This document shows, piece by piece, positions 29,918-55,469 of a DNA stretch of 64,000 bases. Under the pieces are notes generated by a model. The model was not told where the DNA came from, did not search any database, and saw nothing but the letters and a program-made list of their open reading frames with translations. The DNA comes from a bacterium (GTDB lineage: Bacteria > SAR324 > NAC60-12): NCBI GenBank assembly GCA_965205865.1, contig CBDBHR010000029.1:817334-881333 (forward strand), written 5' to 3'. Within the stretch, counting starts at the first letter, position 1; the number at the start of each line of letters is the position of its first letter. A program made the position numbers and the translations under genes.

Positions 29918-31552
29918 ATGTGGAGAAGAATTGCCTCGATACTGGTCAAGATAACCAACCTTTTGATCCTGTTCCTTTTCACATTCACGGGAAACTCTCC
30001 GCAAGCCTCCGAGATTGAGGGTTCCCACCCGATCGATCAGAAAAAAACGTGGGAGGAAATTCGGATTATCTCGACCAATGATATCCACTATTACTTACAC
30101 CCACTCTACTATCGATATATCGATGAAGTTCGACCTTGGGGAGCTCAATCCAGGGACGGGAATTATATTGCAAAAGCAAGACTCGAGGGGAAAATTGGGG
30201 GGATGGCCCATGTGGCCACGGTGATCGAGAGGCTTCGCGGCGAAAAACCTGGAAAATCACTGGTTGTGGATGCCGGAGATACCTGGCATGGCTCTGCATT
30301 TTCGCTCGTGGACCGGGGTGAATCGATGGTCAGGATCTTGAATACTATCGGCTATGACGTGATGGCGCTCGGCAATTGGGATTTTTACTATGAGGAAGAG
30401 CAGTTTCTGAATTTAGTGGAACAAGCCCGATTCCCGGTACTGGCTTACAATCTCGTTGACAAAGAATGGGAAGAGCCGGTCCTGGAGCAATTTACAATCA
30501 AGCAGGTAGGAAAACTGAAAGTCGCGATCGTGGGGATGACCTATCCCTGGACTGCCCTTACATCTGCAATTACAGGTGCTGCTCGATCGTACAAATTCGG
30601 AATCAGGGAAAATGAAGCTCAACTCTTGATCCGGCAAATCAGGGAGGAAGAAGATCCGGATCTCGTGATATTTGTCTCTCATGGCGGCTATGGTCTGGAT
30701 CAAAAGTTTGCGAAACGAGTGGATGGTATTGATGTTATAGTTAGCAGTCATACGCATGATGAAATTTTTCAACCCCTTGTCTGGAACGATACGATAATTT
30801 ATCAAGCAGGCGCTCATGGAAAATATGTGGCCAAACTGGATCTCTGGGTCAAAGACAAGAAAGTGGTCGACTTCGATTATCAGTTGATCAAGATCAATAA
30901 AAAACGCATCCCAGCCCATCCTGAAGTCGCTCAAATCATTGAGGAAGCCTACCGTCCCCACAAAAAAAAACTGGAAGAGATCGTTGGAATATCCAAAAGC
31001 ATGCTTTACCGGCGAGATTTTTGGCAAAGTACGCTGGGAAATCTGATCACCACCGCATTGCAGGATTCTGCCAAAACCGATATCGCTTTTTTCCCTGCCT
31101 GGAGGTTCGGCGCCACGCTGCTTCCGGGTAAAATCACTGTCGGAGACGTTTACAATATGGTACCCACCCATGGACGGATCATCACTTATTCCATGCAGGG
31201 AGAGCAAATCAAAATGCTGCTGGAAAATATTCTGGGAAGTTTCACGGATGCGGATCCTTATGCTCGCGTGGGAGGGGATATGATCCGCTTTTCAGGTCTC
31301 AAAATCCGCTACGATTTGAACAGGAGAGTGAGAGATCGCATTGTTTCGCTGCGGATCGGAGACCAACCTGTTGATTTAAATAAGTCCTACAGCATTGCAT
31401 CCGTGCATACCCGTTTTCAAAACAATCCCCTCTTCGGGGCAACGAATATCAAAGATACCGGCAAAATATTTGTTGAGGAACTTATCCAATACATCCGAGA
31501 ACACTCACCCCTCGTCTCTGAACTCGATGATAGGATAATGCCAGTTCAATGA
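29918..31552 (+). CDS. soxB: SoxB-like thiosulfohydrolase (5'-nucleotidase family)
   Basis: TNDIH, DAGDTWHGS, GNWDF, SHTHD, LYRR, WRFGAT, GGDMIR; between soxY and soxZ. Confidence 0.75.
   Translation: MWRRIASILVKITNLLILFLFTFTGNSPQASEIEGSHPIDQKKTWEEIRIISTNDIHYYLHPLYYRYIDEVRPWGAQSRDGNYIAKARLEGKIGGMAHVATVIERLRGEKPGKSLVVDAGDTWHGSAFSLVDRGESMVRILNTIGYDVMALGNWDFYYEEEQFLNLVEQARFPVLAYNLVDKEWEEPVLEQFTIKQVGKLKVAIVGMTYPWTALTSAITGAARSYKFGIRENEAQLLIRQIREEEDPDLVIFVSHGGYGLDQKFAKRVDGIDVIVSSHTHDEIFQPLVWNDTIIYQAGAHGKYVAKLDLWVKDKKVVDFDYQLIKINKKRIPAHPEVAQIIEEAYRPHKKKLEEIVGISKSMLYRRDFWQSTLGNLITTALQDSAKTDIAFFPAWRFGATLLPGKITVGDVYNMVPTHGRIITYSMQGEQIKMLLENILGSFTDADPYARVGGDMIRFSGLKIRYDLNRRVRDRIVSLRIGDQPVDLNKSYSIASVHTRFQNNPLFGATNIKDTGKIFVEELIQYIREHSPLVSELDDRIMPVQ
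30017..30052 (+). repeat. Single 36-bp dispersed repeat inside soxB
   Basis: gagggttcccacccgatcgatcagaaaaaaacgtgg. Confidence 0.85.
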
Positions 31553-31600
31553 GCTAAAACAGTTTGCATTAAAATATGGACCGTATCGAAAAAGGAAACC

Positions 31601-31951
31601 ATGGCTGAAAAAATCGCCCCCCCCCGCCTCCGTTTGCCGAGACGGATCAAGAAAGATCAAGTATTCAAAGTGAAGGTTAAATTCGACCACCCTTCGTTCA
31701 CCGGGTTAGGACGGGTGGATGAGAAAACCCTGCCTCGTTTCAATCGGGCGGTACCAACTTCGTTCATCCGCACAATGCTGGTTTACTATGGAGATGAGTT
31801 GGTCAACCGTTTCGCCATGAGTTCCGCGATTGCTGACTTTCCCCTCTTTACCTTCAAATTAAAAGCAACCAAGGAAGCACCCGTCAAGGTGGTTTTTATC
31901 AACAATCATGGAGAACGTTGGGAAGTCTCCAAAGATGTAAAGCCCCGTTAA
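31601..31951 (+). CDS. soxZ: SoxZ-like protein
   Basis: VKVKFDHPSFTG, FI..M.V.Y, SSAIADFPLFTFK, NNHGE. Confidence 0.7.
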   Translation: MAEKIAPPRLRLPRRIKKDQVFKVKVKFDHPSFTGLGRVDEKTLPRFNRAVPTSFIRTMLVYYGDELVNRFAMSSAIADFPLFTFKLKATKEAPVKVVFINNHGERWEVSKDVKPR

Positions 31952-31997
31952 ATGAATATTTTATTTTTCAAAATAAAACGAGAATTGAGGGTCATTC

Positions 31998-32708
31998 ATG
32001 AATAATAGATTTACCACCTTGCTCCTCTTTTCCTTCATGGCAGGTTTGATTTTGAATACAATTGCTCAGCATTCAGTGGCCAATGCCGAGAAAGCTCAAT
32101 TTGAAATCGAGGGATTGATTTCTCCTGTCAGTCCAAAAGCTCTGACCAAAGGGCTGCTGGACAAGCTGAGGGTGAAGGTGACTGACCTGAATTTGAAAAA
32201 CACGCCGAGTGGTTGGCCAGTATTGACCGTCGAATTTGATGCCGCTACTGTCAGCAAAGAAGCAATTGAATCCGCCATTGCCTCAATCGAAGATCCGGCA
32301 GGTCACCATTTTCAAGTGCGCAAAGGACCTCCACGGGTGGAAGCCCCTTTGCTCAAGGAAGAAATGGACGCCATAGCTGTCATCCCCGCATCTGTTCCTC
32401 AGATCCCATCTCTGGAAAATCCCATTCCACGCACCAGTGAATCGGAGGCACTCGGCCAAACGCTGTATCGAAGAAACTGTGCCAAATGCCACGGCTTGGA
32501 TGGAGGGGGACAAGGCCCCAGTGCGCATGGATTCCTCAGCAATCCCCGAAAACTTTATGTCTGGTTCAATACCGACTCCTCGACGGATGGTTATTTGTTT
32601 TGGTATATAACCCAAGGGCGCAACGACATGCCTCCCTGGGGACTGGTGCTCTCGGAAGAGGAGCGCTGGCATCTGGTCAACTACGTCAAATCCATGAAAC
32701 AACCTTAG
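31998..32708 (+). CDS. Secreted monoheme cytochrome c with N-terminal HMA-like domain
   Basis: CAKCH, MPPWG..LSEEERWHLVNYV; N-terminal FEIEGL..V.FD...VS.E.I..AI. Confidence 0.8.
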   Translation: MNNRFTTLLLFSFMAGLILNTIAQHSVANAEKAQFEIEGLISPVSPKALTKGLLDKLRVKVTDLNLKNTPSGWPVLTVEFDAATVSKEAIESAIASIEDPAGHHFQVRKGPPRVEAPLLKEEMDAIAVIPASVPQIPSLENPIPRTSESEALGQTLYRRNCAKCHGLDGGGQGPSAHGFLSNPRKLYVWFNTDSSTDGYLFWYITQGRNDMPPWGLVLSEEERWHLVNYVKSMKQP

Positions 32709-32757
32709 CTTCCAAGGAGGGTCTGGCTCAACAAACTAAACCTCAACGAGTTTTTAG

Positions 32758-33180
32758 ATGGAGATCGCTCGGGATATCGTGACCCAATCTTTTCACGATA
32801 TGAAATTTGAAGAACTCCTTGAAGATTTGGTCAAAGAAATCGAGTTGCGTAATTATCGCATCACTCGTGTTTATAACATTGACAATATCAAAGAGCGTAA
32901 AGAATTACTGCAAGATTTCCAGGTGGAATTCGAGCATTACAAGATCGTGGAATTTTGCAATTTGACCAAATGCGCAACTTTGATTTCTTCCCATCTTTTA
33001 GTAGGCGTTTTCATGCCGCTGAAATTCGTTGTCTATCAGGAAGTCACGCAAAGCCAAGTGGAGGTTGCGTTTTTAAAACCAACTGCCTTTGCCAAGATTT
33101 TTGACTCTGCCTCTCTCACTGAGATAGCCGCAGTGTTGGAGAAAGATATGCGCTATGTACTGGAAGAAATCGATTTTTAA
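32758..33180 (+). CDS. DUF302 family protein
   Basis: YKIVEFCN, GVFMPLKFVVYQ, FLKPT. Confidence 0.75.
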   Translation: MEIARDIVTQSFHDMKFEELLEDLVKEIELRNYRITRVYNIDNIKERKELLQDFQVEFEHYKIVEFCNLTKCATLISSHLLVGVFMPLKFVVYQEVTQSQVEVAFLKPTAFAKIFDSASLTEIAAVLEKDMRYVLEEIDF

Positions 33181-33742
33181 AATACATCTGCTGACGGGGC
33201 TTGTTTTCCTGATGATGGGGGCTTTTTGTTATACCATGGCTCAGGATTCAAAACCAAAACCCGGGGGCGATTTCACCCTGCAATCGCTACGCGGCCCCGT
33301 GTCGCTCCATGATTTTCAAGGCAAAGTGGTTTTGCTGTTTTTTGGATACACGAGTTGTCCTTCAATGTGTCCGCTTTCCCTATCGACCATGGAAAGTACT
33401 TTCTCCAAAATGCCACCGGAGACCTTGCAGAAAATACAAGCCCTTTTTATCAGCTTGGATCCGGAAGAGGACACTTTGACGAAGTTGAAACAATACACAG
33501 AATTTTTTCATCCAAATATTCTTGGTGTGACCGACCAGCCAGAAAGTATCGCTCGGGTTGCGCAACAATATGGGGTGGTTTATGAGAGAGAATTATTGAG
33601 CCATTCAGCCCTGGGATATATCATCAATCACACAGCTGATATCTTCCTGGTCGATCCTCAAGGAAAATTACAAGAATCGGTGGCCCATGATTCTCCCCCT
33701 CAACTGCTTCGCGAGTCTATCCATCGACTTCTTTCCCGATAA
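33155..33742 (+). CDS. SCO1/SenC copper chaperone
   Basis: FFGYTSCPSMCP, ISLDPE, NHT motifs. Confidence 0.9.
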   Translation: MYWKKSIFKIHLLTGLVFLMMGAFCYTMAQDSKPKPGGDFTLQSLRGPVSLHDFQGKVVLLFFGYTSCPSMCPLSLSTMESTFSKMPPETLQKIQALFISLDPEEDTLTKLKQYTEFFHPNILGVTDQPESIARVAQQYGVVYERELLSHSALGYIINHTADIFLVDPQGKLQESVAHDSPPQLLRESIHRLLSR

Positions 33743-33786
33743 AGAGCCCGGACGGACTTTTAACCTTTCATTTTCAATTTCAGACT

Positions 33787-35364
33787 ATGGCTCTGTTGCG
33801 AACCTGCTTATTTTTTCCGGCAATCTGGATTGCCTTGATCATCTCTGCCCACGCTTTCGAACATGAGCATTCTCCCGTTCAATTTTTGGAATACCACCCC
33901 ACCATCATTGACAATCAAAAATTCCGGAAAAAACCTTTTTATCTGCTCTTCTCAGCGCAATGGTGTCATTGGTGTAAGATCTTTGCCAACAAGACATTGA
34001 TGGATCCCAACGTACACGCCTTTCTCAATGAGAATTTTGTCAATATCTTCATTGATGCCGATATCCACCCGACCGTTTTTAAAAAATTCAAGGCAACAGG
34101 CTGGCCCTACACAGTTTTTTTGAATCCCGATACTAGTGTTCACTATCAGTACGCGGGTACCGTTTATCCCAAAGATTTCGTTAAAGTACTGTATGAAGTC
34201 AAGCAAAATGTAGACGAAGGACGGACGATCCCCGGGTTTGAAACGATTGCTTATGAATATGATCCTCCCAAAGAATTGGAAAAGGAAAGAATGCAGTCGT
34301 TCCAGGAATTGTTTCAGCAAACGATTTTGGAGAATTTTGACCTGAGCGAAGGAGGGATCGGCAAAAAAGAAAAAGCCATTTTTCCCGGAACCCTTCTCTA
34401 TCTGTTGGACACGGCCAATGCGGAAGACCGGGCTGAGGTCATCGAGTCGATCCACCTGACTTTGAAGAAAGCAATCCTGCGCATCTATGATCCCATTGAA
34501 GGAGGATTTTTCCGCTATGCGGAGAAACGGGAGTGGCAAATCCCACATTATGAAAAAATGGCGGATTTGAATGCGGGAAATATTTTGCTTCTTTACAAAA
34601 TGGCGCGCGAGACTAAAGATGCCGAATTGAAGAAAATCGCAGACCAAACGCTGAAATATCTGGTCACGACTCTCTTTGATTCAAAGACCGGTATCTTTTT
34701 GAGCTTCCAAGAAGCCGACACGCATTACTATTTCTTTGATGCCAAGCAACGAAAAACCATGCAAGCTCCCTTCGTGATTCAAAAGGTCTTTGTCAACCGT
34801 GTGGCTCCTACGCTCGACTATCTGATCGATGTCCTTGAATATTCTGATGGATTTGCTCTTGAACATAAAATAAAACAATCTCTTGATTTGCTGGCATCGA
34901 TGATCCGGCAAAATGATCGACTCTCCCACTATTACTCGGTGACCCGGAACAAATGGATGGGTGAAAGCCGGCTGGCGAATTATGCGTACTTGGCATATTT
35001 ATTCCAGAAAGCCGCCACTCGTTTTGAAAATCCCCATTTTGAGGAAACGGCATTGATAGTTTTGCAATCAACCAAGAACCAGTTTTTTGACCGAGACCTG
35101 CGTATTTTTGCTGATAGTCTTTCCCTGCATTGGGGAGATATTGAATATCACATGGAAATGAACGGTTTCCTGGCGCAAATGCTCTTGCATACCAAAAAAG
35201 TGAGCAACAGCAGAGCGGCTGAAGGGCTGCTGACCTATTTTCTCGCCATGGATGAATATCTCGAAGAACAAGCCTGGGATGCTCGTGAATGGGAATTTCT
35301 GGAACGCTATGTTCCTTATCTGAAAGCGCTCGGACTGCGCAATGAAAAAGCAAAAAACCGATGA
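33787..35364 (+). CDS. Secreted thioredoxin-domain protein (YyaL/DUF255-like)
   Basis: WCHWC, GWPYTVFLNP, GGFFRY...W.IPHYEKM. Confidence 0.85.
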   Translation: MALLRTCLFFPAIWIALIISAHAFEHEHSPVQFLEYHPTIIDNQKFRKKPFYLLFSAQWCHWCKIFANKTLMDPNVHAFLNENFVNIFIDADIHPTVFKKFKATGWPYTVFLNPDTSVHYQYAGTVYPKDFVKVLYEVKQNVDEGRTIPGFETIAYEYDPPKELEKERMQSFQELFQQTILENFDLSEGGIGKKEKAIFPGTLLYLLDTANAEDRAEVIESIHLTLKKAILRIYDPIEGGFFRYAEKREWQIPHYEKMADLNAGNILLLYKMARETKDAELKKIADQTLKYLVTTLFDSKTGIFLSFQEADTHYYFFDAKQRKTMQAPFVIQKVFVNRVAPTLDYLIDVLEYSDGFALEHKIKQSLDLLASMIRQNDRLSHYYSVTRNKWMGESRLANYAYLAYLFQKAATRFENPHFEETALIVLQSTKNQFFDRDLRIFADSLSLHWGDIEYHMEMNGFLAQMLLHTKKVSNSRAAEGLLTYFLAMDEYLEEQAWDAREWEFLERYVPYLKALGLRNEKAKNR

Positions 35365-35433
35365 TTGTAAAGGTTTCCCTCTCCCGGATCAAAAATAATC
35401 AAAAGGCGATATTGCAAAGAGAAAAAATATATT

Positions 35434-35462
35434 TTGACATTTGGGTTTTCATTAATTAGAGT
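35434..35462 (+). promoter_or_regulatory. Sigma70-type promoter of the molybdoenzyme operon
   Basis: TTGACA-17 bp-TAGAGT. Confidence 0.5.
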
Positions 35463-35657
35463 ACCTGATTGAAAACCTTATCAGACTGTATTCAACTACG
35501 ATCGAAGGTTTTTTAGTCGCAAAGATTTAGCGATTTGCTGCGTTCTTTTTGTCCTGCTCCCGGATTCTCAGTCTCGATGCTCATTGTCGAGGGCAATAAG
35601 TTGGGTAGCGATCTGTAAAAATCTTCGTTTCAAGAGACATCATTTTAGGAGAAATGA

Positions 35658-36512: not shown

Positions 36513-36522
36513 GGAGAATAGT

Positions 36523-36999
36523 ATGAATCGAACACATGTAGTATGTAATATTAATGGCGACGAGGTCGAGTTTCTTTGTGATGACGATGAATCATTGCTC
36601 GATGCGTTGCGCGACGAAGTTGGACTAACAGGGGCAAAGGAAGGCTGCGGTACCGGAGACTGTGGCGCTTGTTCAATAATTTTCGATGGCCTCTTGATTT
36701 GTTCATGCCTGGCATTTGCTCCCGAAGCAAATGGCGCGCACATTGAAACAGTCGAAGGAATGGCCGACGGGGAGACGCTCCATCCCTTGCAAACAGCTTT
36801 TCTCGAAGGAGCCGCTCTGCAATGTGGGGTTTGTACTCCGGGATTTCTCGTTGCTGCCAAAGCATTGCTCGAGCGCAATTCCGATCCCACGGAAACCGAA
36901 ATTCGTTATGCCCTGGCTGGCAATCTTTGCCGTTGTACCGGATATGACAAAATCGTGCGCTCGGTGATTGATGCCGCCGCACAAATGAATAACGCATAA
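36523..36999 (+). CDS. Xanthine dehydrogenase family 2Fe-2S subunit
   Basis: GCGTGDCGAC, QCGVCTPG, NLCRCTGY. Confidence 0.94.
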   Translation: MNRTHVVCNINGDEVEFLCDDDESLLDALRDEVGLTGAKEGCGTGDCGACSIIFDGLLICSCLAFAPEANGAHIETVEGMADGETLHPLQTAFLEGAALQCGVCTPGFLVAAKALLERNSDPTETEIRYALAGNLCRCTGYDKIVRSVIDAAAQMNNA

Positions 37000-37016
37000 A
37001 GGAAAGGGGAAATATT

Positions 37017-39514: not shown

Positions 39515-39532
39515 TTTCGCGGGGGTCTGTTT

Positions 39533-40609: not shown

Positions 40610-40628
40610 TGGAAAAGAGGAAACGCAT

Positions 40629-40868
40629 TCAGTTCTTTTGAATGAAAAAGACATGCGCGTTTCCTTCCACCTCCGTTTTGAGAATTGAATTCCCGGTACG
40701 AGTACTCCAGGTTCTCATGTCACTGATGAAGCCCGGATCCGTCGAAGCCATTTTCAGCACTTGTCCGGGGGATAACTTGGACAACGCCTTTTTTGTTTGC
40801 AGCGCGGGCATCGGACAAGTGAGATTTCGGCAATCCAAATACTGATCAAAGTTCATATCTTGCCGCAT
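40629..40868 (-). CDS. TusA/SirA family sulfurtransferase
   Basis: LDCRNLTCPMP, STDPG. Confidence 0.92.
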   Translation of the reverse strand: MRQDMNFDQYLDCRNLTCPMPALQTKKALSKLSPGQVLKMASTDPGFISDMRTWSTRTGNSILKTEVEGNAHVFFIQKN

Positions 40869-40917
40869 TGACTTTTCTCCTTGCCAAATGGCATTTTACG
40901 TTGCTGATTGTTTTTTT

Positions 40918-41637
40918 TCAAAGATCGGTATGTAGCCCGCATTCTGTTTTTTCACACTGATTCCACCGGTCCTCTCTTCCATTGATTCCCACACCCTTTG
41001 TGCAGGGAACACATCCCAGGCTTTGATCTTTTCCTGAAATATGGAGAGGATGGACAGGGATTCGCTTTTTTTTCATATAAGTAAAAACTTCGTCGGAAGT
41101 CCAATCCAGGAAGGGATGGAGTTTATATATTTCCTTTTTTGTCAAGATGGCACGCGCAAAGCTGCTTCTCTGATGGGTCTGACTTTTGCGCACCGCGGAA
41201 ATCCACGCCCGAACGCCATACTGGTTGATATAGTCTTCCAGTGGTTGAACTTTATTCATGGCACAGCACAAATCGGGATTGGACAAGTACAATCTCCCAT
41301 GTTTTTTTAAAAAATCCTCTTTTGTGAGTTTTGGCAATGCTTCCACGAAATCCAGTTTCCTATAATTTGCTTTCAAGGTCTCGAAGTAATCCAGGGTTTC
41401 CTGAAACAAGAAACCGGTGTTGACAAAAACGACGCGGATGGGCAATTCGAGTTCGGACAAAAAATGAACCAGCACTCCTGAGCTGATACCGCAGGAGGTC
41501 GTAGCGATTAATTTGTCACCGAAAATATCATAGGCTTCCCGAATGAGCCGCGCCGTATCCAGGTGATTGAGTTTGCGCAATACAGCCTGTATTTGCGTAA
41601 AGTGCTCGCCAATCGGCATTTGATTCGACATGTTCAT
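40918..41637 (-). CDS. cysH: APS/PAPS reductase (Fe-S APS-type motifs)
   Basis: NTGFLFQET, CCAMNKV.PL, SLGCVPCT, ECGLH. Confidence 0.9.
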   Translation of the reverse strand: MNMSNQMPIGEHFTQIQAVLRKLNHLDTARLIREAYDIFGDKLIATTSCGISSGVLVHFLSELELPIRVVFVNTGFLFQETLDYFETLKANYRKLDFVEALPKLTKEDFLKKHGRLYLSNPDLCCAMNKVQPLEDYINQYGVRAWISAVRKSQTHQRSSFARAILTKKEIYKLHPFLDWTSDEVFTYMKKKRIPVHPLHISGKDQSLGCVPCTKGVGINGREDRWNQCEKTECGLHTDL

Positions 41638-41653
41638 GACTTCCATTTTGGCT

Positions 41654-43807
41654 TCAGGCAGCAACATCATTGGCGCTTTGGGCAATCCGGCTATAGACCA
41701 CATGCGCTTCCTCGACAAACAGGATCGCCTGTTCAATGGTATAGCGGATATTGGTTTCATCCAGCGATGCAAAATCTTCGTCCAGAGTTTTTAAATAGTA
41801 GGCAGCCGGTTTGGCAAAGAAGATGGACGTTTCCACAAAGTGGCTCTTGAAGGCATCGGCGGTCACATAATCTCCGAATTCTTCGTAGCCCTGAGTGAGT
41901 AGCAATGCTATTGAGGCTTTTTCCATCGAGGACTTTGCCAGCTGATAAGCTTCCCGGGACCGGCTTTCTTCCAGCATAATAGCCGCCTGCGCGTTATTTC
42001 GGTCGCATTCTTCCAATAAAAATTCAGTACGGGGCAGCAATACCCCGGCGCATTCACCTTTTTCCGTACTCAACTTGAATGCGGTTTCCTCTCCCACATC
42101 CGTGAAAAAATCGGGATTGTCTTCATAAGTGGGTAAGGTCATCAAATCGGCTAATTCCTCTTTGACTTTCTTTTTACCAACCCGTTCCACAAACTGAGAG
42201 AAACTTTCATCTACCTCTCCGAAGTTCTCATAAAAACGGTTCACCCGCTCAATGGCTTCCGGAATGCGGTGTGGGGATATTTTCCCGACAGCCAAGCCAT
42301 ACGATTGCGCGTTGCCGGAAGTGGTGCCTCCCAGAAGCATCTGAAATACGGGTGCAATCCGGCCTTCCTTGGATTGGGCCGAACCAAAGAAACCGAGATC
42401 GGCAATGTGGTGCTGTCCACAGGAATTGGGGCAACCACTGACTTTGATCTTCATTCCTGTTTTTTCACCCAGTTCGTACAATTCATTCTGAAATTGCTCG
42501 TGAAGCATGGTTGCAAGCCCCCTGGACGCGGTGATTCCCAGTTTGCAGGAATCGGTGCCCGGGCAGGCGGTGACATCACTGAGGGTGTTGCCGTAGCCAT
42601 GCAACCCCAACTGTTTGAGGTCTTCATATAGAAACGGCAACTCTGCATTCGAAACCCAGCGAAACACGATGTTTTGTTCCGCACTCAAGCGGATCGTGTC
42701 TTTAATATACTGGTGGGAAATCTCCACCAATCGGCGTAATTGATCGCCGGTGACATCGCCCAAAAGACAAAATATATGCGCGATGGAATATCCTTCCTGC
42801 TGTTGGGCTTCCACATTGTGTTGGAACCATTTTTTGAATTCGTCGCTCTGTGCTTCCAGATCCAGGGAAGACGGGGGTTTATAGGGAGATTCACTGTAAC
42901 TCGAGTACTTGGAGAAAATGCTGGCTCCCACTTTTTTACGGCCGATTTTGCTCCGTTCTTCTTCGATCATCTCACGCACCGGATCAATTCCGAGTTTATC
43001 CACTACAAATTTAAATCGTGCTCGATTGCGGTTGCGACGCTCCCCATGGCGAGTAAAAACCCGGGCAATGGCCTGAGCCACGGAAAAAAGCTCTTCCCGT
43101 GGAATAAATTCATACAATTGCCGGGCTTTTCGAGGGACAGCCCCCAAACCACCTCCGATGAGCAATTCAAATCCTGCCACCGGTTTTCCTTCAATTTGTC
43201 GTACTTGCGCAATGGCTCCGATGTCGTGCATGTGGGCCAGTCCACACATCTCATCGGCGCAGCCGGAGTATGAAATTTTGAATTTCCGACCGAAATCCTG
43301 AGCTTCGGGATGCTTCAATAAAAATTCAGACATGGCAAGAGCATCCGGGGTGGTATCAAACACGGCGGACGCGCAAACTCCACTTTTGGTGCATGCGCAA
43401 ACATTGCGGACCACGTTTCCGCACGCTTCCAAGGTCGTAATTCCCACTTGGGCCAGCCGTCTCAGTAATTCTGGCGTATCCCGGATGTTGACGTTATGAT
43501 ACTGGATATCCTGGCGAGTCGTGACATGCGAAACCCCATCCGCCAGTTCGTCAGACAAATCGGCCATGGTTTTCAACTGCTCAGTGGAGACCATGCCCAG
43601 AGGCAGTTTGATGCGTATCATCTGTTGATTTGGTTGGCGCTGTCCATAAACACCATGGCGCAGACGAAATTCCGTGAAAATCGCTTCCGGAACTTCTCCA
43701 TTCAGCCAACGGTTGAGTTCGGTTTCGTAGAGCTCCAAATACTTGGACAGATCTACTTCGTTAATAATGTGCTGCCAACTCTCTTGGGTGTGTTCAATTG
43801 CTGTCAT
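41654..43807 (-). CDS. Ferredoxin-type sulfite/nitrite reductase with C-terminal HEPN-like domain
   Basis: GVYGQR, TTRQDIQ, RNV, RKFKI, ACPG..SC, SGCPNSCGQH. Confidence 0.9.
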   Translation of the reverse strand: MTAIEHTQESWQHIINEVDLSKYLELYETELNRWLNGEVPEAIFTEFRLRHGVYGQRQPNQQMIRIKLPLGMVSTEQLKTMADLSDELADGVSHVTTRQDIQYHNVNIRDTPELLRRLAQVGITTLEACGNVVRNVCACTKSGVCASAVFDTTPDALAMSEFLLKHPEAQDFGRKFKISYSGCADEMCGLAHMHDIGAIAQVRQIEGKPVAGFELLIGGGLGAVPRKARQLYEFIPREELFSVAQAIARVFTRHGERRNRNRARFKFVVDKLGIDPVREMIEEERSKIGRKKVGASIFSKYSSYSESPYKPPSSLDLEAQSDEFKKWFQHNVEAQQQEGYSIAHIFCLLGDVTGDQLRRLVEISHQYIKDTIRLSAEQNIVFRWVSNAELPFLYEDLKQLGLHGYGNTLSDVTACPGTDSCKLGITASRGLATMLHEQFQNELYELGEKTGMKIKVSGCPNSCGQHHIADLGFFGSAQSKEGRIAPVFQMLLGGTTSGNAQSYGLAVGKISPHRIPEAIERVNRFYENFGEVDESFSQFVERVGKKKVKEELADLMTLPTYEDNPDFFTDVGEETAFKLSTEKGECAGVLLPRTEFLLEECDRNNAQAAIMLEESRSREAYQLAKSSMEKASIALLLTQGYEEFGDYVTADAFKSHFVETSIFFAKPAAYYLKTLDEDFASLDETNIRYTIEQAILFVEEAHVVYSRIAQSANDVAA

Positions 43808-43866
43808 GTTTACCTTTTGAAAAATTCCTTTCTCCCAGACCTCTCCAGTTGTGGGAGCTTTTATAA

Positions 43867-44322
43867 TTAAATATAATAAATGAAACCCTGGTTGTTCCGA
43901 GAACTCACTTTGGCTTCCCGTCTCAGAATATCCTGCATACTGATAGTGTCTAAAACCCTGGCTATTGCTTCCTGAACTTCGGCCCATACTCCAAAAAAAT
44001 GAAGGCGACCTTCTCCCACGGATTGCAAATGAGTCAGGGGATCCGAATGTTCCGGAGAGAACCAGCGTTTATCAACCAAGCGAATGATATCCCCCAAAAA
44101 AATTTCATCCGGTGGCTTTGCCAGAGCATAACCCCCACTTGGCCCTTTTCTGCTTTCCACATATCCTGCTTTTTTCAACTGTAACATGATTTGTTCGAGA
44201 TACTTGTTCGGGATATCTTGAGCTTTGGAAAGATCCGAGACCCGTACCAGTTTGTTGTTGTAATAATGCGATAGCTCCAAAACTGCGCGCAGCGCATAAT
44301 TACATCGGGTTGAGCGCTTCAT
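43867..44322 (-). CDS. Rrf2 family regulator (CymR-like, no Cys triad)
   Basis: YALRAVLEL, YLEQIM..LK..G.VESRKG..GGY.LAK. Confidence 0.92.
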   Translation of the reverse strand: MKRSTRCNYALRAVLELSHYYNNKLVRVSDLSKAQDIPNKYLEQIMLQLKKAGYVESRKGPSGGYALAKPPDEIFLGDIIRLVDKRWFSPEHSDPLTHLQSVGEGRLHFFGVWAEVQEAIARVLDTISMQDILRREAKVSSRNNQGFIYYI

Positions 44323-46661: not shown

Positions 46662-46670
46662 GGAACGAAT

Positions 46671-47668: not shown

Positions 47669-47869
47669 TCAATCTCGAATTGTATGAAGTTTAATTACTT
47701 TTTGCTCCAGTTTGTCCAAGCGATTTTCAAGCGCTTCCAGAAATTTCAATAGGGCCGGAGAAATATTCAACTCTTGGGCTCTGTCTTCACTTTGCTGCCG
47801 CGCTTTTTCCTTGACAGCGGCTTCCATCTTCTTTTGAAGATCCAACAATTTCCCGGATTCGTCCATCAC
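47669..47869 (-). CDS. Small coiled-coil hypothetical protein
   Basis: 66-aa ORF with GGAGG SD. Confidence 0.55.
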   Translation of the reverse strand: MMDESGKLLDLQKKMEAAVKEKARQQSEDRAQELNISPALLKFLEALENRLDKLEQKVIKLHTIRD

Positions 47870-47875
47870 TTCCTC

Positions 47876-47947
47876 CTTCAGTATCCTCTGATCGATTGGG
47901 CGGAAACCCTCCCACGGTATTCTCTGATCGATTGGTCGGGAACCCTC
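47876..47947 (-). repeat. Tandem pair of the 36-bp dispersed repeat (intergenic)
   Basis: gagggttcccgaccaatcgatcagagaataccgtgg / gagggtttccgcccaatcgatcagaggatactgaag. Confidence 0.85.
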
Positions 47948-47951
47948 CTAT

Positions 47952-49037
47952 TCAGGGCCGTATTTCATAGTAAAGATTGGCCGGGTCGTCAAAATCATGC
48001 TCCTTGAATTGGGTGAAGCCGGCCTCGCTGGTCATTTTGCGGGCGACTTCCGGATTGAATCCCAGCGTGCCCAATCCCATACCATCAGGCTCCGACATGG
48101 CGGAAGACATGCACGAGGCGACAGAAAACCCGTACATCATGGCCAACACCGGATTTTTCATGTTTTCTTCGAAATCGGGGTGGCTTCTGATGTCTTTGAT
48201 CAGCCAGGTTCCTTCCGGTTTGAGAGCTTTGTGAATGGCGGCGATGACTTTGTCCGGTCGTGTCATATCATGGAGACAATCCAAGGTGATTAAAAAGTCA
48301 TAGGTGGGTTCCTCCGGCAAATCCTCACCCCGCGCCACGTGGAACGTCACATTCTCCACCCCCGCTTCAGCTGCCCTCTCCTCTGCCTGTTCGATGGCAA
48401 AAGAAGAGGTATCGTAGCCATGAAATTCCGCGTGAGGGAAGGCTTTGGCAAGTACGGTCAAAGCTACGCCCGCACCGCAGCCGACATCAGCGGCGATTCC
48501 CCCATGCTTCAATTTAGGCACGACTCCCTCCAGAGCCGGTAAAATGGTAGGAACGAGCGCCAGTCGCGACCAAGGCCCCAGCGTGCGAGCAATTTGGCGT
48601 GCCGTGGTCGGACCCAGATCCTGATAGGTCAATCCAATTCCCGTGCGAAATGCCCCTGCAAGACACTCAACGATATCCGGATGCAAAGGTTCGCCAAAAG
48701 CGCCCGTTGCAAACCACAAACTACTTTCCTCATTTACCAGGACTTCCCGGCCAATGGCGGTCAATTCAAAGCGATCCCCCGATTCGCGTTCCAATAAACC
48801 TGCAGCCGCTTGGCTGCGCAACCACTCCAGTAGCCAGCGTTCGTGCAAACCAGTGTGCTCTGCCAGTGCCTTTGCAGTCATATACCCGCCTCCATCCATT
48901 GCTCGATAAAGCCCCAAGCGGTCTCCCAGATGGATCATTAAAGAGACCATTTCCCCTTCCTTGTATTTCCAGACTTTCAGGGAAAACTCCTCCAATTCTT
49001 CCTGATCCAGTTCTTTTTTTTCGACTTTTTCCACCAT
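47952..49037 (-). CDS. Class I SAM-dependent methyltransferase with N-terminal wHTH (Rv2258c-like)
   Basis: LGDRLGLY, ERWLLEWL, ADVGCGAG, DCLHDM. Confidence 0.9.
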   Translation of the reverse strand: MVEKVEKKELDQEELEEFSLKVWKYKEGEMVSLMIHLGDRLGLYRAMDGGGYMTAKALAEHTGLHERWLLEWLRSQAAAGLLERESGDRFELTAIGREVLVNEESSLWFATGAFGEPLHPDIVECLAGAFRTGIGLTYQDLGPTTARQIARTLGPWSRLALVPTILPALEGVVPKLKHGGIAADVGCGAGVALTVLAKAFPHAEFHGYDTSSFAIEQAEERAAEAGVENVTFHVARGEDLPEEPTYDFLITLDCLHDMTRPDKVIAAIHKALKPEGTWLIKDIRSHPDFEENMKNPVLAMMYGFSVASCMSSAMSEPDGMGLGTLGFNPEVARKMTSEAGFTQFKEHDFDDPANLYYEIRP

Positions 49038-49136
49038 GTTATTGCTCTATTTATTGAAGTTGGAAGATACTTTTTATTGCTGTTTTTTCCAATCCCTTCT
49101 GATAAAAAGTGGTACCACCACATCGGCGTACCGTCT

Positions 49137-49736
49137 TTACTTTCTTTGCGCTTGTTGAAACACCATGGCGCTGTTACCTGCTACCACTTGCCATGCACCT
49201 TCCCGGACTTCTTGTTCCAATTGGCCCGGCCACCAGCCTGCATATCCCAAATAAACCCGAAATTGTTCCTCGGGATAGTTGAATTGGAGAATTGTTTCGA
49301 AGAGTCTGCGACTGTTGCCGAAATAGATATCTTCCAGAACGTGAATCACTTCGTCAGGGGGAGATGGGGTTTGGATCAAAAGAAATGCCCGGTTCCTGGC
49401 CACAGGTCCGCCAACGTATAAGTGATCTTCCCTGTGACTCCCCTTGAATTCCGGCCCCAAGGCTGAAAGATCGATGGACGTGGGGCGATTGACGATCAAC
49501 CCCATACTTCCGGAGGTATCATGATCGGTCAGCAGAATGACGGTTTCCCCAAAGTAAGTGCCTTGCAATTGCGGACTGGCAATCAAAAACTTCCCTTTTG
49601 CTAATTCCTCGCGCACCGGACGCTTGGAAAGGGCCGCAAATCGGGCGGCGGAGTTGGCCATCAGATCCCGGTCCGCCATTTCTGCTAATACCCAACTCAG
49701 TAAAACAAAGCACCCCAATATGAAGAGTTTTTTCAT
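49137..49736 (-). CDS. YqgE/AlgH family protein with N-terminal signal
   Basis: LIASP, GSMGLIVNRP, GGPV, LGYAGWWPGQLEQE. Confidence 0.88.
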   Translation of the reverse strand: MKKLFILGCFVLLSWVLAEMADRDLMANSAARFAALSKRPVREELAKGKFLIASPQLQGTYFGETVILLTDHDTSGSMGLIVNRPTSIDLSALGPEFKGSHREDHLYVGGPVARNRAFLLIQTPSPPDEVIHVLEDIYFGNSRRLFETILQFNYPEEQFRVYLGYAGWWPGQLEQEVREGAWQVVAGNSAMVFQQAQRK

Positions 49737-49950
49737 ATCATCTCCAAGCTGAATTAGTGATATTGATAAGAATTGTGATTATTTGACAAAGCGACTTCAA
49801 AAGTCCAGCAAATTCTTTTCAATCGGCCACTTTGTCATAGTTGGCCATATGCATATAAATTGACTTTGTACAACCTGTCGATATATTAACCTCAATTTTA
49901 ACAGGAAAAGTAGCAGAATTAATAAATTTGCCAATCCGGATCCAAGCTTT

Positions 49951-51720
49951 ATGCGCAGACGAACAGGAGGACATATTTTAGCCGATCAACTCAAAATCCA
50001 GGGAGTGGAACGTGTTTTCTGTTTGCCGGGTGAAAGTTTTCTCGAGTTGTTGGACGGGCTTTATGAACACCGGGACTCTATTCAAGTGATCACAACCCGA
50101 CACGAGGGAGGGGCGGCAAATATGGCCGAGGCGTCTGCCAAATTGACCGGTCGTCCGGGAGTGTGTCTGGTGACCCGCGGGCCGGGTGCCACGAACGCCT
50201 CGATCGGAATCCACACGGCCTTTCAGGATTCCACTCCCGTGATTCTCCTCATTGGTCAGGTAGAACGTTCGATGATGGACCGGGAAGCCTTTCAAGAAAT
50301 CGATTTCCGCCGTATGTATGGAGAAATGGCAAAATGGGTGGCGCAAATCGATAGCTCTTCCCGAATTCCGGAATACGTCAGCCGGGCTTTTCACGTCGCT
50401 CTTTGCGGACGCCCGGGTCCGGTGGTGCTTGCCTTGCCGGAGGATATGCTTCGCGAAGAGGCCAATGTGGAGGACGGCAAACCCGCGCATCGGGTGCAAG
50501 CTGCCCCTTCTCCCCAGTCCATGGAAACATTTCGGACGCATCTGCAAGGCGCCGAATCTCCTTTGCTAATAGTCGGGGGCGCCACCTGGACAGAAGAAGC
50601 GGTTGTCCGGATCACGGAGTTCGTGGAAGCGAATCGACTACCAGTTGCAGCATCTTTTCGCTCCCAGGACTGTTTTGACAATCGGCATCCCCAGTATGTA
50701 GGCGACATTGGCATCGCCCTCAATCCGTACCTGGAAAAATTCGTCAGAACCAGTGATTTACTGATTGTTGCCGGGCCAAGGCTGGGAGAAATGACGACAT
50801 CCGGCTACACGCTGCTCGACGTTCCCAATCCGACCCAGAAGCTGATCCATATTCATCCGGGTGCCGAAGAGTTAGGCCGTGTTTTTTATCCCACGTTGGC
50901 GATCAACGCCTCCATGGAGGAATTTACCGCGGCTCTGCCTAAGGTTTTTCCCGTGGATAGCGGGCGCTGGCGAGGAAACATTGCCAAGCACCGTGAATCG
51001 TATTTGGAATATAACATTCCCACTCCAGTCCCCGGATCTCTCAATTTTGGTGAAATCGTCGCGCATTTGAGTAAGGTGTTGCCTGAAGACGCCATCATTA
51101 CCAATGGCGCCGGGAATTACACGGTGTGGGTGCATCGTTTTTTTCAGCACAAACGCTACCGCACGCAAATTGCTCCCAGCAATGGTGCGATGGGATACTC
51201 GGTGCCAGCAGCTATCGGCGTAAAACTGGCAGCGCCGGAACGGTGTGTGGTCAGCTTCAACGGAGATGGATGTTTTCAAATATTCGGACAAGAACTGGGG
51301 ACAGCCATGCAATACGGGGTCGCGGTGATTTTCATCGTGGTCAACAATGGCATGTTGGGCACCATCCGTATGCACCAGGAACGTCATCATCCCGCACGCG
51401 TGATGGCAACCTCTTTGAAGAACCCCGATTTTGCAGCTCTCGCTCGAGCTTATGGCGCGTTTGGGGAACGGGTTCTCCAAACCAAAGCGTTTCCTGCAGC
51501 CTTTGAGAGGGCCAGGACAAGTGGAAAACCTGCTCTTTTGGAATTGATTGTCGACCCGGAAGCTCTCACCCCAAAACAATCTCTCAGTGCCATTCGAGAA
51601 GCCTCGCAAATGGCCATGAGTTTATACTATGGAGAAAAAAGATGTCACCAGTCACCCCAGTCGATCTGCCACGTGATTACTCCCAACGTATCAGGAACGC
51701 CCGGGACCTCAAAGGGTTGA
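49951..51720 (+). CDS. TPP-dependent enzyme (acetolactate synthase large-subunit-like)
   Basis: [31 protein letters not shown]-terminal tail overlaps the next gene. Confidence 0.9.
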
Positions 51721-54700
51721 CGCAAACGCAATTCGCAGAGTTGATTGGCGTTTCCTTCGCCTCGGTCAATCGCTGGGAGAATGGACAATCTCGCCCCAAC
51801 AATCTTGCTTGGCGGCGCATTCTCGAGATCGAAAATTCGTCGGCAAGCGATGTCGTCAACGACTCTCCGGTTGTTTCTGAAAAAGAATCATCGAGGCGCT
51901 TCAGAGAAACTCCCTTGCAGGTACCCTTTCAGCAGAAATTGAATTTTTCTGCTGATGCGAATGCCGTTTCGACCGTCGCCGAGGCGCATCGACTGGCTTA
52001 CGGTCATCTCTTCAATCCCTCGTTCGCAACTGAAACGTCCCGGATCGACCCCCTGCCTCATCAACGAATCGCCGTCTACGAGCACATGCTGCAACAGTCC
52101 CCGCTACGATTTCTGCTGGCTGACGATGCGGGAGCCGGCAAGACGATCATGACGGGTCTGTATGTGCGCGAAATGCTGTCCCGACAGCTTATCCGTCGCG
52201 TGCTCATTGTGCCACCAGCCGGACTGCTAGGCAACTGGGAAAGCGAAATGTGGAACCTGTTTCGCTTGCAATTTCGCATCATCAGCGGCAGCGATGCGCG
52301 ATCAGGCAATCCCTTCCTTGGGCCGGAGAGCGACCTGGTCATCGTCAGCATCGACACTTTGGCCGGGGATCGACTCTTCGGTCAACTCAAAGACCCGAGG
52401 ACAGAGGCCTACGACCTCGTGGTCTTCGACGAGGCTCACAAACTCTCCGCGAATCGTCAGCCGGATTTTCGGGTACGCAAGACGGGTCGCTACAAGCTGG
52501 CAGAAGCCATCGCCGGAGGCGGAGCCGACAGTGAGCAATGGGCGCTGCCCTGGTCTGCCCGGCATTTGCTGTTGCTGACGGCAACGCCACACATGGGAAA
52601 GGACCATCCCTACTATTTCCTGTGGCGCTTGCTGCTGCCGGAAACACTCTCGACCTACGATGCATTCGCCAGCTTCTCCGCTGATTCCCGACAAAGGCAT
52701 TTTATTCGCCGCACCAAGGAGGAGATGGTTCAGTTCGATGGTCTTCCGCTCTATCCCCGCAGAACCTGCAACACGTTAAGCTACCAACTGACGCAGGGAC
52801 CGGAAAACGAACAGGAACTCTACGATGAAACGACGGACTACATCCGCAACAACTACAACCGGGCCAGGATTCTGAATCGATCCGCCGCCCGGCTGGCGAT
52901 GAGCGTCTTCCAGCGGCGTCTCGCCAGTTCCACCTATGCCCTTATGCGCTCCTTCGAGCGTCGCCGAGACAAGCTCACGGCTTTTATTAACGACATTCGG
53001 AACGAGCGGCTCACCGAGGAACAACTTGCGCAACAACAACGACGCCTTGATAACCTCGACGACCAATTCGAAACGAGGACGGCTGACGAGGACGCCGCGT
53101 CCGGAGACGGCCGCGAGCAACATGAAGATTTCGAGTCCAGCGCTCTTGCCGGCACCGTCGCGGTCAGTCTCGCCGAGCTCGAGAAGGAACGTTTCCGGGT
53201 CGCAGAGTTGCTCGACAAAGCACGGAAACTGTACAACGCCGGCGAGGAATCCAAATTCGAGAGACTCCGCGATGTGCTCCAAAATCCCGAATACGCCGAC
53301 CAGAAATTCATTATCTTCACCGAGCACCGCGATACGGCAAACTTCCTCGTGCGCAGACTCGAAAAACTCGGCTTCACCGGTCAGGTCTCCCTGATCCATG
53401 GTGGCATGCCGTACCGGGAGCGTGAGCGACAGGTGGAGTTTTTCCGCAAGCCCTCGACTGGAGAGGGAGCCAACTACCTTGTCGCCACCGACGCTGCCGG
53501 AGAAGGCATCAATCTCCAGTTTTGCTGGTTGATGGTGAACTACGATATCCCCTGGAATCCGGCAAGGCTCGAGCAACGGATGGGACGCATTCATCGCTAT
53601 GGCCAGACGCACGATCCGGTGATCATCATCAACCTGGTGGCAGGAAGCACGCGCGAGGGACGGGTTCTGAAGACGTTGCTCGACAAACTCGAAACAATCC
53701 GTCTCCAACTCCAATCCGACAAGGTATTCGACGTCATCGGCCACCTTTTCCGGGACCTGTCCATCAAGGACTATCTCGAGCAGGCGCTCACGGAAGAAGA
53801 CCCTGCAGCCGCCGTTGAACGTTTGCAAGGCAACCTCACAGGGGAACAAGTCCGGGCTCTCGAGGAAAAGGAGCGCCTGCTATTCGGGGAAGGTGGCGAC
53901 GTCTCCCGCGAACTGGCGCGTCTCAACGATCAGGTGGAGCAGGAAAGTTATCGACGGCTTCTGCCCGGCTACGTGAGACGTTTCCTGGAGAAAGCGGCAC
54001 CGCTGCTCGACCTGCGTATCAAGGGAAATCCGGAAGTTACCTTCGCGCTCTCCCCTGAACAACCCCGTGCGCTCGATGCGTTGTTACCGGTACTTGAAAT
54101 GTATCCCGCAAACACCCGCGATCGTCTGACTGTACATAAACCCGGCAAGAACGAAGAGGTGATCTGGATGCACCCGGGGGAACCGCTGTTTGATCGAATC
54201 TCCACCTCGATTTTAAACCGTTTCGGGCTTGAAGGACTGAAGGGTTCCGTGTTCATCGATCCAAACGCAGCCGAGCCTTATCTGTTCCACGTCGTTTCGG
54301 TTTCCATTGAAAGGTCCTGCAATCAGAACAACACGCAATCGGCCGCTCTGTTGAACGAACCCGGCAACGCCGGAACAGGCACGGGGATTCCCACCTCTTC
54401 GACTGAAAGATACGGTGGGAGCGTTCCCACTCCTTCGATCAATAAATACTGTGGTAGGGTGGTCGATTCGAGACTGCTCGGCCTGCGTCAAATGAACGAC
54501 GGTACCGTTACGCAGTGTCCGGTCGAGCATCTGCTCCTCTTGAGAGAGACCCGGGGCTTCGCTCCGAGCCGGATACCGTTGGCTGCCCGAGCACGCCGGA
54601 TGGCTTCCGCGGCGCTTGAATTTGTTCGGGACGAGGTAGCGGAAGGACTGGCGCAGACCCATCGACGACGACTCCTCGACGAATTACCGGCCCGTATGGA

Positions 54701-55469
54701 GCTCCTCAAACGGGGCTTCGACCATCAGGAAGCCGAACTCGTGCAGGCCCGGGATCGCTGCAATAAAAAAGCCAGCGCCGGTGATCGCCACGCCGGGGAA
54801 GAACTCCCCAGGATCAAAGAACGGCAGCGGAGTCTGAAGGCAGCAAGAACTCGCAGGCTCACCGAACTGAAAGCCGAACCCCAACTCATTCAGACCGGCA
54901 AAGTCGAATTCCTCGTGCACGCGCTCGTGGTGCCCGTTCAGCACCCCGAGGAGGCCGAGCGCTATGATGCCGACGTCGAGGCCATCGCCATGAAAGTGGT
55001 CACTGCCTACGAGGAGCGTTATGGGGCCGAGGTGATAGACGTTTCGCAACCTGAACTTGCGCGTCGCGCGGGGTTGGACAACTGGCCGGGCTTCGATCTC
55101 TTGTCCCGCCCCGCAAACGCCCATGGTCCCGTAGAGAATTCCCACCCTATCGATCCAATGACACTGTGGGAGGGTTCCCACCCGATCGATCAAGAAAAAC
55201 TTTGGGAGCAGCGAGCCATCGAGGTCAAAGGTCGCGCCGGTACCACTAATGTCGAGATGAGCGCCAACGAATGGACCAGGGCCTGCAATCTCCGCGATAA
55301 ATACTGGCTCTACGTCGTCTTTGACTGCGCCACGCCGCGCCCGCGTTTGCTGCGGGTGCGCGATCCGTTTGCAAGGCTGATCGCCGCAAGCCGCGAATCT
55401 TTTGCGTACACGATCACTCCGAAGTCCCTGCACGAGGTGGCAGAGCTCTCGGGGGATATGGAGACCTGA
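51642..55469 (+). CDS. XRE-HTH + SNF2 helicase + DUF3883-type nuclease fusion (defence-associated)
   Basis: LTQ..FA..IGVS..SVNRWENG; LLADDAGAGKT, DEAH, TATP, GEGINLQ, WNPARLEQRMGRIHR; GFDLLS..IEVKG...NEW. Confidence 0.9.
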   Translation: MSPVTPVDLPRDYSQRIRNARDLKGLTQTQFAELIGVSFASVNRWENGQSRPNNLAWRRILEIENSSASDVVNDSPVVSEKESSRRFRETPLQVPFQQKLNFSADANAVSTVAEAHRLAYGHLFNPSFATETSRIDPLPHQRIAVYEHMLQQSPLRFLLADDAGAGKTIMTGLYVREMLSRQLIRRVLIVPPAGLLGNWESEMWNLFRLQFRIISGSDARSGNPFLGPESDLVIVSIDTLAGDRLFGQLKDPRTEAYDLVVFDEAHKLSANRQPDFRVRKTGRYKLAEAIAGGGADSEQWALPWSARHLLLLTATPHMGKDHPYYFLWRLLLPETLSTYDAFASFSADSRQRHFIRRTKEEMVQFDGLPLYPRRTCNTLSYQLTQGPENEQELYDETTDYIRNNYNRARILNRSAARLAMSVFQRRLASSTYALMRSFERRRDKLTAFINDIRNERLTEEQLAQQQRRLDNLDDQFETRTADEDAASGDGREQHEDFESSALAGTVAVSLAELEKERFRVAELLDKARKLYNAGEESKFERLRDVLQNPEYADQKFIIFTEHRDTANFLVRRLEKLGFTGQVSLIHGGMPYRERERQVEFFRKPSTGEGANYLVATDAAGEGINLQFCWLMVNYDIPWNPARLEQRMGRIHRYGQTHDPVIIINLVAGSTREGRVLKTLLDKLETIRLQLQSDKVFDVIGHLFRDLSIKDYLEQALTEEDPAAAVERLQGNLTGEQVRALEEKERLLFGEGGDVSRELARLNDQVEQESYRRLLPGYVRRFLEKAAPLLDLRIKGNPEVTFALSPEQPRALDALLPVLEMYPANTRDRLTVHKPGKNEEVIWMHPGEPLFDRISTSILNRFGLEGLKGSVFIDPNAAEPYLFHVVSVSIERSCNQNNTQSAALLNEPGNAGTGTGIPTSSTERYGGSVPTPSINKYCGRVVDSRLLGLRQMNDGTVTQCPVEHLLLLRETRGFAPSRIPLAARARRMASAALEFVRDEVAEGLAQTHRRRLLDELPARMELLKRGFDHQEAELVQARDRCNKKASAGDRHAGEELPRIKERQRSLKAARTRRLTELKAEPQLIQTGKVEFLVHALVVPVQHPEEAERYDADVEAIAMKVVTAYEERYGAEVIDVSQPELARRAGLDNWPGFDLLSRPANAHGPVENSHPIDPMTLWEGSHPIDQEKLWEQRAIEVKGRAGTTNVEMSANEWTRACNLRDKYWLYVVFDCATPRPRLLRVRDPFARLIAASRESFAYTITPKSLHEVAELSGDMET
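54383..54454 (+). repeat. Tandem pair of degenerate 36-bp repeats inside the helicase gene
   Basis: ggggattcccacctcttcgactgaaagatacggtgg / gagcgttcccactccttcgatcaataaatactgtgg. Confidence 0.7.
55134..55205 (+). repeat. Tandem pair of 36-bp repeats inside the DUF3883 domain
   Basis: gagaattcccaccctatcgatccaatgacactgtgg / gagggttcccacccgatcgatcaagaaaaactttgg. Confidence 0.85.

Follow-up and report, generated by a model that had tools for sequence, protein, structure and literature searches.

A 36-bp direct repeat at four loci of a SAR324 contig resembles a very small, undescribed insertional repeat

The stretch of DNA analysed here (hereinafter referred to as the window) comprises 64,000 nucleotides of contig CBDBHR010000029.1 from a bacterium of the SAR324 lineage, and contains seven copies of a 36-bp repeat unit at four loci, in arrays of one, two, two, and two units distributed over both strands. 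The single unit lies within a gene of the soxY-soxB-soxZ cluster that encodes a 547-aa SoxB-like metallophosphatase/5'-nucleotidase according to Pfam (29909-31552, plus strand). Two arrays are carried by one gene (51642-55469, plus strand; hereafter helicase sites 1 and 2), in whose 1275-aa product Pfam recognises HTH, SNF2-type helicase, and NOV_C domains. The remaining array is intergenic and separates a methyltransferase gene (47952-49037) from a small coiled-coil open reading frame (ORF; 47669-47869), both encoded on the minus strand (47669-49037 in total). All seven copies were found where a preliminary description, made from the letters of the sequence, had put them, the positions 47947 and 47911 given there being the 5' ends of minus-strand units. 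Its statement that the units are exactly 36 bp long and follow one another head to tail with zero spacer was borne out at all loci.

The unit in the SoxB-like gene (30017-30052, plus strand) is read as EGSHPIDQKKTW (residues 37-48 of the protein); the next four bases, 30053-30056, are GAGG. The first unit of the intergenic array (47912-47947, minus strand) begins 4 bases past the methyltransferase stop codon (47952-47954). The 3' end of the second (47876-47911, minus strand), together with the adjoining GAGG (47872-47875), supplies a GGAGG ribosome-binding motif ahead of the 65-66 aa coiled-coil ORF. At helicase site 1, the third base of a codon coincides with unit position 1; the first unit (54383-54418, plus strand), read as GIPTSSTERYGG, is the most diverged of the seven (26/36 vs the consensus), and the second (54419-54454, plus strand), read as SVPTPSINKYCG, is followed by TAGGGT. 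Helicase site 2 lies within the NOV_C (DUF3883) nuclease-like domain and consists of units at 55134-55169, in unit frame 1 and read as ENSHPIDPMTLW, and 55170-55205, read as EGSHPIDQEKLW and followed by GAG (both plus strand). The latter is the closest to the consensus (33/36) and has its first 23 bases in common, without mismatch, with the unit in the SoxB-like gene.

Frame 1 of the unit is thus used at 30017, 55134, and 55170, another frame at 54383 and 54419, and none at the non-coding array (47876-47947). Because two reading frames and one non-coding array are involved, the seven units represent a DNA-level repeat rather than a protein motif, in agreement with the earlier proposal of a DNA element in unrelated genes whose length keeps the frame. 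The unit is oriented in the sense of the host transcript at all four loci, a pattern that is only suggestive at this number of loci.

Identity between units ranged from 21 to 31 of 36 positions, whereas random 36-mers of the window averaged 9.0 (standard deviation 2.6). When as many as 3 mismatches were allowed, a 20-mer of the unit matched four times in the window vs zero times in 100 dinucleotide shuffles, and a degenerate 32-column pattern matched five of the seven units in the window and nothing in 100 shuffles. A profile built from the seven units recovered those seven, as it must by construction (E ≤ 1.2e-7), and no eighth copy in the window, the next best place having E = 0.26. Tandem Repeats Finder, at a minimum score of 30, reported one of the three two-unit arrays (55139-55208, period 36).

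Conservation along the unit was highest in the 5' 23 bases and in the 3' GTGG, with a variable A-rich stretch between them. No stop codon interrupts the consensus in any of the sense frames, and two of the three antisense frames are open as well. The motifs pointed out in the preliminary description were partly present: the ATCGAT palindrome occurred in five of the seven units and CCCAC...GTGGG was complete in three. The stem that the latter was thought to form is not stable, since in eight DNA folds, which covered both strands of the four loci, z-scores against shuffles lay between -0.43 and +0.87, and none contained a stable hairpin. In tandem copies, GTGGGA and TCCCAC can also pair across the unit junction. 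No terminal inverted repeats were read from the sequence at the ends of the 32-bp core defined below. TCCCAC...GTGGGA had been considered as terminal inverted repeats of a 32-bp element, and this was rejected because two extra bases at the SoxB junction were left unexplained.

The left edges of the arrays were sharp, and the left flanks at the four loci did not match the unit end. The right flanks were GAGGAA (SoxB), GAGGAA (intergenic), TAGGGT (helicase site 1), and GAGCAG (helicase site 2), and prolong the unit by 4, 4, 5 (of 6), and 3 bases, namely GAGG, GAGG, (T)AGGGT, and GAG. Judged from the GAG frequency of the window itself, the probability that at least three of four flanks begin with GAG is approximately 1.3e-5. 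The earlier remark that the units are usually followed by GAG(G) holds. GAGG or part of it borders all four arrays. The simplest description of these edges would be n repetitions of GAGG plus a 32-bp core, closed by a further GAGG, the core having gone in at a GAGG that now stands at either end of it. SoxB and helicase site 2 both have E-E where the site is empty, which is compatible with one GAGG there, as far as protein alignments can tell. Counting both strands together, GAGG occurs 486 times in the window.

The SoxB-like protein, which contains the Pfam domains Metallophos and 5_nucleotid_C, matches the PDB SoxB entry 2wdc (E = 3.2e-60; aligned core residues 85-504). Since this alignment starts at residue 85, the insert is N-terminal of the aligned core; it is situated just after a signal-peptide-like N terminus and ahead of the first conserved strand. 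The window protein was aligned with the 51 best of 120 listed homologues (840 at E ≤ 0.001). The 12-residue insert was found in two of these 52 sequences, the window protein and P0124, which is 98% identical to it. The other 50, including P0125 (83% identical), read ASEI followed directly by EEIRII, precisely the 12 residues being missing. As P0125 has an empty site and P0124 a filled one, the 36 bp entered the SoxB gene after the split of the P0125 lineage. Among close relatives, the site is cleanly filled or empty.

The 1275-aa protein is an HmaA-like defence helicase (PADLOC HmaA, E = 1.3e-170), and was aligned with the 41 best of 120 listed homologues (1332 at E ≤ 0.001). Both inserts were present in eight of the 42 sequences (the window protein and P0004 to P0010), and neither was present in the remaining 34. 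In a FastTree phylogeny computed from the 1103 columns with <20% gaps, from which the insert columns were thereby dropped, the eight carriers formed one clade with a support of 1.0. Because the carriers form one clade on this insert-free tree, the helicase insertions are old and inherited.

Unit number nevertheless differs within this clade. At site 1, P0004 to P0009 have one unit, the unit corresponding to 54383 being missing, whereas the window protein and P0010 have two; in the alignments these differences appear as clean gaps of 12 residues, although overall identity is 93% and 92%. At site 2, seven proteins have two units, and P0010 has four nearly identical ones. In P0010 (residues about 1073-1136), a frameshift at the A-run of the unit follows the four units and removes the NOV_C domain, reflecting either a real inactivation by the homopolymer of the repeat or a homopolymer sequencing error in the assembly. 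The units of P0005 to P0009 have decayed well past their flanks, as exemplified by P0005 (EGCRTIDQKISW/THSCPVDPNVRY, vs 68% identity for the region), and this faster decay would be the behaviour expected for unconstrained inserts. A predicted structure of the C-terminal 195 residues of the helicase had a mean predicted local distance difference test score (pLDDT) of 46.7, which is too low to place the insert, and was not used.

Several further features of the helicase gene were observed. Compared with P0004, the window protein is a mosaic, in which residues 100-880 and 1070-1275 are nearly identical and residues 880-1070 are much more diverged. P0010 is P0005-like over its first 830 residues and P0004-like over the remainder. 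These patterns suggest recombination between lineages. If begun at its first ATG, the helicase ORF has 79 bp (51642-51720) in common with the TPP-enzyme gene upstream of it (49951-51720). The closest relatives, P0004 to P0010, are annotated approximately 100 residues shorter and without the HTH domain, which more distant homologues have.

Pfam searches of 82 ORFs of the window (61 ORFs, then 16 unassigned ORFs at E ≤ 0.05, then 5 more) detected no RAYT/Y1 gene, no cas gene, and, with one exception, no other transposase. The linked RAYT/HUH transposase that the preliminary description suggested looking for thus has no counterpart within the window. The exception is a partial ISNCY-family gene (62708-64000) that runs off the end of the window and was recognised by NCBIfam with E = 7.1e-64, below the curated cut-off; the profile found no unit-like sequence upstream of it. 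At gathering thresholds, Rfam identified four tRNAs in the window and nothing else, and permissive Rfam scans of the arrays gave chance matches only (E ≥ 0.95) and no CRISPR-DR.

A blastn search of a 76-bp array against phages returned nothing, and literature searches yielded no described family matching the 36-bp repeat, the only families to surface being those compared below. The earlier statement that the repeat is not recognisable as a described family was therefore upheld in Rfam, plasmids, phages, and the literature. Against plasmids, blastn returned one 30-base match (93%, E = 4e-3) in the Halalkalicoccus jeotgali plasmid NC_014298.1 (405451-405480). It covers the unit junction and the GATCGATC core, is found once, in antisense orientation within a glycosyltransferase gene and without 36-bp periodicity, and is probably a chance match. 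In addition, P0245, a 153-aa protein of the representative protein library used below, consists mostly of six 12-residue tandem repeats (DQKRPIDITRLW), hence a 36-bp period, and has P-I-D and L-W positions in common with the unit peptide; it could be a coincidence or a distant cousin of the unit.

Outside the arrays, the window contains a sulfur-oxidation neighbourhood (27980-33742 and 40629-43987) with soxY-, soxB-, and soxZ-like genes and cytochromes c, as well as genes for DUF302, SCO1/SenC, and TusA proteins and a 776-aa sulfite/nitrite reductase-like protein. Genes for pyruvate/2-oxoacid:ferredoxin oxidoreductase are found elsewhere in the window. The helicase gene opens a defence island (51642-62330), in which it is followed by NsnA/NsnB/NsnC-like genes (59055-62327; PADLOC E = 6e-145, 5e-104, and 8e-50, respectively) and then by the partial ISNCY-family transposase gene. 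An 818-aa ORF of the island (56606-59059) had no PADLOC match; the one thing recognisable in it is the C terminus, which matches the L13e family of archaeal/eukaryotic ribosomal proteins (Pfam E = 2.3e-7, NCBIfam E = 7e-12). The 48-56 kb block had a G+C content of 54%, compared with 46-50% for the blocks before 48 kb and 51% for the final block, and the GC skew of the window was uninformative on the direction of replication.

Taken together, these results show that copies of a 36-bp unit have reached four or more unrelated sites, that at least one such event was recent and precise, and that the arrays change by whole units. The unit looks like a very small, undescribed insertional repeat, which we do not assign to any named family. 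With moderate confidence, we regard the seven units as a lineage-specific insertional micro-repeat that targets GAGG. The interpretation offered in the preliminary description is partly supported; the selfish nature proposed there would imply many copies. A 32-bp core would enter the DNA at GAGG and afterwards be bordered by GAGG at either end, lengthening the DNA by a net 36 bp or 12 codons, and the pair of GAGG would be a target-site duplication. Arrays would grow as further cores enter at a flanking GAGG, through slippage, or through a combination of the two. Copies within genes may survive where a loop or linker tolerates 12-24 extra residues, because exactly 12 codons are added and no stop occurs in the three sense frames. 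Between genes, the duplicated GAGG would rebuild a ribosome-binding motif. The unit would presumably be moved by a trans-acting enzyme encoded outside the window, and further copies of the family may be expected elsewhere in the genome.

Several observations weigh against an insertional micro-repeat targeting GAGG. The four loci lie within 25 kb of each other, and they are too few for proving GAGG as a target. With neither terminal inverted repeats nor a stable hairpin, the unit fits none of the known transposition chemistries, and a mobilising gene for it was absent from the window. Recent movement is documented by the SoxB event alone, the helicase inserts being old and inherited. The degenerate pattern that matches five of the seven units hit 35 loci in 185,579 species genomes, with one match each, which is approximately the number predicted from the information content of the pattern, and nothing beyond the forced columns was conserved. 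As family members these 35 matches were rejected: they scored at most 16.2 bits, vs 27.7-33.6 bits for the real units, and none was tandem. A typical family member was thus absent from the 185,579 genomes, and the source genome and its close relatives are evidently outside the collection, or the stretches in question are masked in it. A search of the 40-aa peptide of helicase site 2 against 5.8 billion protein clusters retrieved one protein (P0004) of three candidates; this search was insensitive, missing P0010 with its four units, and is a weak negative. Likewise, a HMMER scan of the 30-aa two-unit peptide against 1.84 billion representatives gave three matches, all to unrelated repeat proteins, and no true relative. 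This too is a weak negative, the representatives standing for 50%-identity clusters in which lineage-specific inserts are hidden behind insert-free members. Neither peptide search added an in-frame copy or hinted at a family of high copy number.

The alternative that best survives dispenses with both element and enzyme. Template switching or ectopic gene conversion, primed on GAGG(G) microhomology, would have copied the unit from an existing array, e.g., that of the helicase gene, and slippage would have set the size of the arrays. Such copying predicts what is seen at the junctions, where the target and the unit start are identical over 3-6 bases in every case and the number of units is integral. 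At helicase site 1 this identity reaches AGGGT, beyond what a fixed 4-bp duplication needs. The confinement of all loci to 25 kb, the lack of a transposase for the unit, of inverted repeats, and of a hairpin in our searches, and the one-unit changes, which ordinary slippage would produce, are also in accordance with it. However, GAGG is abundant (486 occurrences), so that a special reason would be needed for one 36-bp donor to have been used again and again at three other loci. Moreover, conservation is higher in the 5' 23 bases and the 3' GTGG than in the A-rich stretch between them, a pattern that resembles a recognition constraint more than neutral copying. We regard template switching as possible, though on the doubtful side.

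A selected cis-element is improbable. The unit would in that case be a protein-binding site on the GATCGATC/ATCGAT palindrome or a ribosome-binding-motif module, and the intragenic copies would be by-products. The retention of ATCGAT in five of the seven units, the well-conserved 5' half, the GGAGG with which the intergenic array serves the next ORF, and the sense orientation at four of four loci would suit such a role. Three of the four loci, however, are inside the coding sequence of unrelated proteins, the units in the helicase relatives decay faster than their flanks (EGCRTIDQKISW/THSCPVDPNVRY in P0005), and no regulator or RNA family was matched. A 12-residue peptide module, ancestral or selected at the protein level, deserves very little credence: the SoxB insert and helicase site 2 do have an E-G-S-H-P-I-D-Q frame in common, but helicase site 1 uses another frame, one array is intergenic on the other strand, 50 of 52 SoxB and 34 of 42 helicase homologues are without the peptide, and a role shared between a signal-peptide-like N terminus and a helicase host seems unlikely. 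An origin as a relic of CRISPR, or of some other repeat family or structured RNA already known, is highly implausible. The length of 36 bp is typical of CRISPR repeats, but the units have no spacers, the scanned ORFs of the window contained no cas domain, and Rfam gave four tRNAs, with chance matches only (E ≥ 0.95) in permissive scans of the arrays.

If the insertional micro-repeat is taken further, it might stand for a new class of ultra-small mobile DNA, namely a 32-bp core without inverted repeats or hairpins that integrates at the Shine-Dalgarno-like GAGG and duplicates it, is harmless almost everywhere, with 12 open codons gained within genes and a ribosome-binding motif restored between them, and is moved by an enzyme or a nucleic-acid-templated process outside the known transposition mechanisms. 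This extension is tentative, and we consider it rather unlikely. To our knowledge, there are very few repeats of <50 bp with evidence of insertion, and the mechanism of such small repeats is either hairpin-dependent (REP/RAYT) or still unknown (SDR, MIRU). The SoxB event provides a clean case: relatives 83% and 98% identical differ by exactly 36 bp, gained in a conserved enzyme, the putative junction is 4 bp long, and the insertion has no secondary structure that could account for it. If the unit is multi-copy, it would offer a tractable system for studying how tiny sequences move. It also bears on annotation and protein evolution: 12-48 extra residues occur in a periplasmic sulfur-oxidation enzyme and in the nuclease-like domain of a defence helicase, and the A-run of the unit coincides with the frameshift that truncates P0010.

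Among known repeats, CRISPR arrays differ from the arrays described here, in which the units abut without spacers and are accompanied neither by a cas domain in the window nor by an Rfam CRISPR-DR match. PARCELs encode a 25-residue motif with dyad-symmetric DNA and account for large parts of surface proteins (PMC2996958). Like the present unit, they are coding repeats in tandem for which movement from gene to gene seems likely; they differ from its 12-residue units, which occur in enzymes as inserts of one to four copies. MITEs are set apart by terminal inverted repeats that match a parent insertion sequence, which the 32-bp core does not have.

In size, the nearest are the SDRs of heterocystous cyanobacteria, which Elhai et al. 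in 2008 reportedly described as 21-27 nt long, with small inverted ends, and nested within each other. SDRs are mobile-looking, far smaller than MITEs, and without a known transposase. The present unit resembles them in being mobile-looking, far below MITE size, and without a known transposase, and departs from them in showing neither nesting nor inverted ends. REPs are extragenic, typically form inverted pairs, and go with a RAYT (Y1 HUH) gene of the same genome, next to which they often lie. They are imperfect palindromes tagged with GTAG or CGTC (PMC3733652). The unit described here falls in the REP/REPIN size class of 20-40 bp and likewise has one highly conserved end. Unlike REPs/REPINs, it has no GTAG or CGTC tag at either end and no stable stem, and its copies are directly arranged and mostly intragenic. 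Among the 82 ORFs of the window that were scanned, none was a RAYT gene.

In its effect on genes, the closest system is the Rickettsia RPE. RPEs are about 105-150 bp long (PMC3184786, PMC10969869); they are palindromic elements that enter unrelated genes in frame and encode a peptide tolerated by the host protein (PMC10969869). The analogy with RPEs drawn in the preliminary description is apt for the in-frame colonisation of genes, seen here at three intragenic sites in two unrelated genes. It fails for structure, as the present unit is 36 bp long, non-palindromic, and without a stable hairpin, its tandem copies all pointing the same way within an array.

Among the families compared, the mycobacterial MIRU is the closest in its described architecture. 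MIRUs are 40-100 bp long, are described as intergenic, and have imperfect inverted repeats (Delihas, 2011; PMC3184786). That review also reports dispersed head-to-tail arrays, strain-variable unit number, filled and empty sites, and tetranucleotide direct repeats, and places MIRUs in operons, where they touch the translation signals of their neighbours (PMC3184786). The present unit differs in its length of 36 bp, in the location of three of four loci in coding sequence, and in having no significant inverted repeat. It is MIRU-like in its dispersed head-to-tail arrays, with one to two units at helicase site 1 and two to four at helicase site 2 among relatives, in its GAGG flanks, in the SoxB site that is empty in P0125, and in the intergenic array, from which the following ORF receives its GGAGG. 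By analogy with these two families, the best reading is probably that of a micro-repeat combining a MIRU-like architecture with an RPE-like colonisation of genes.

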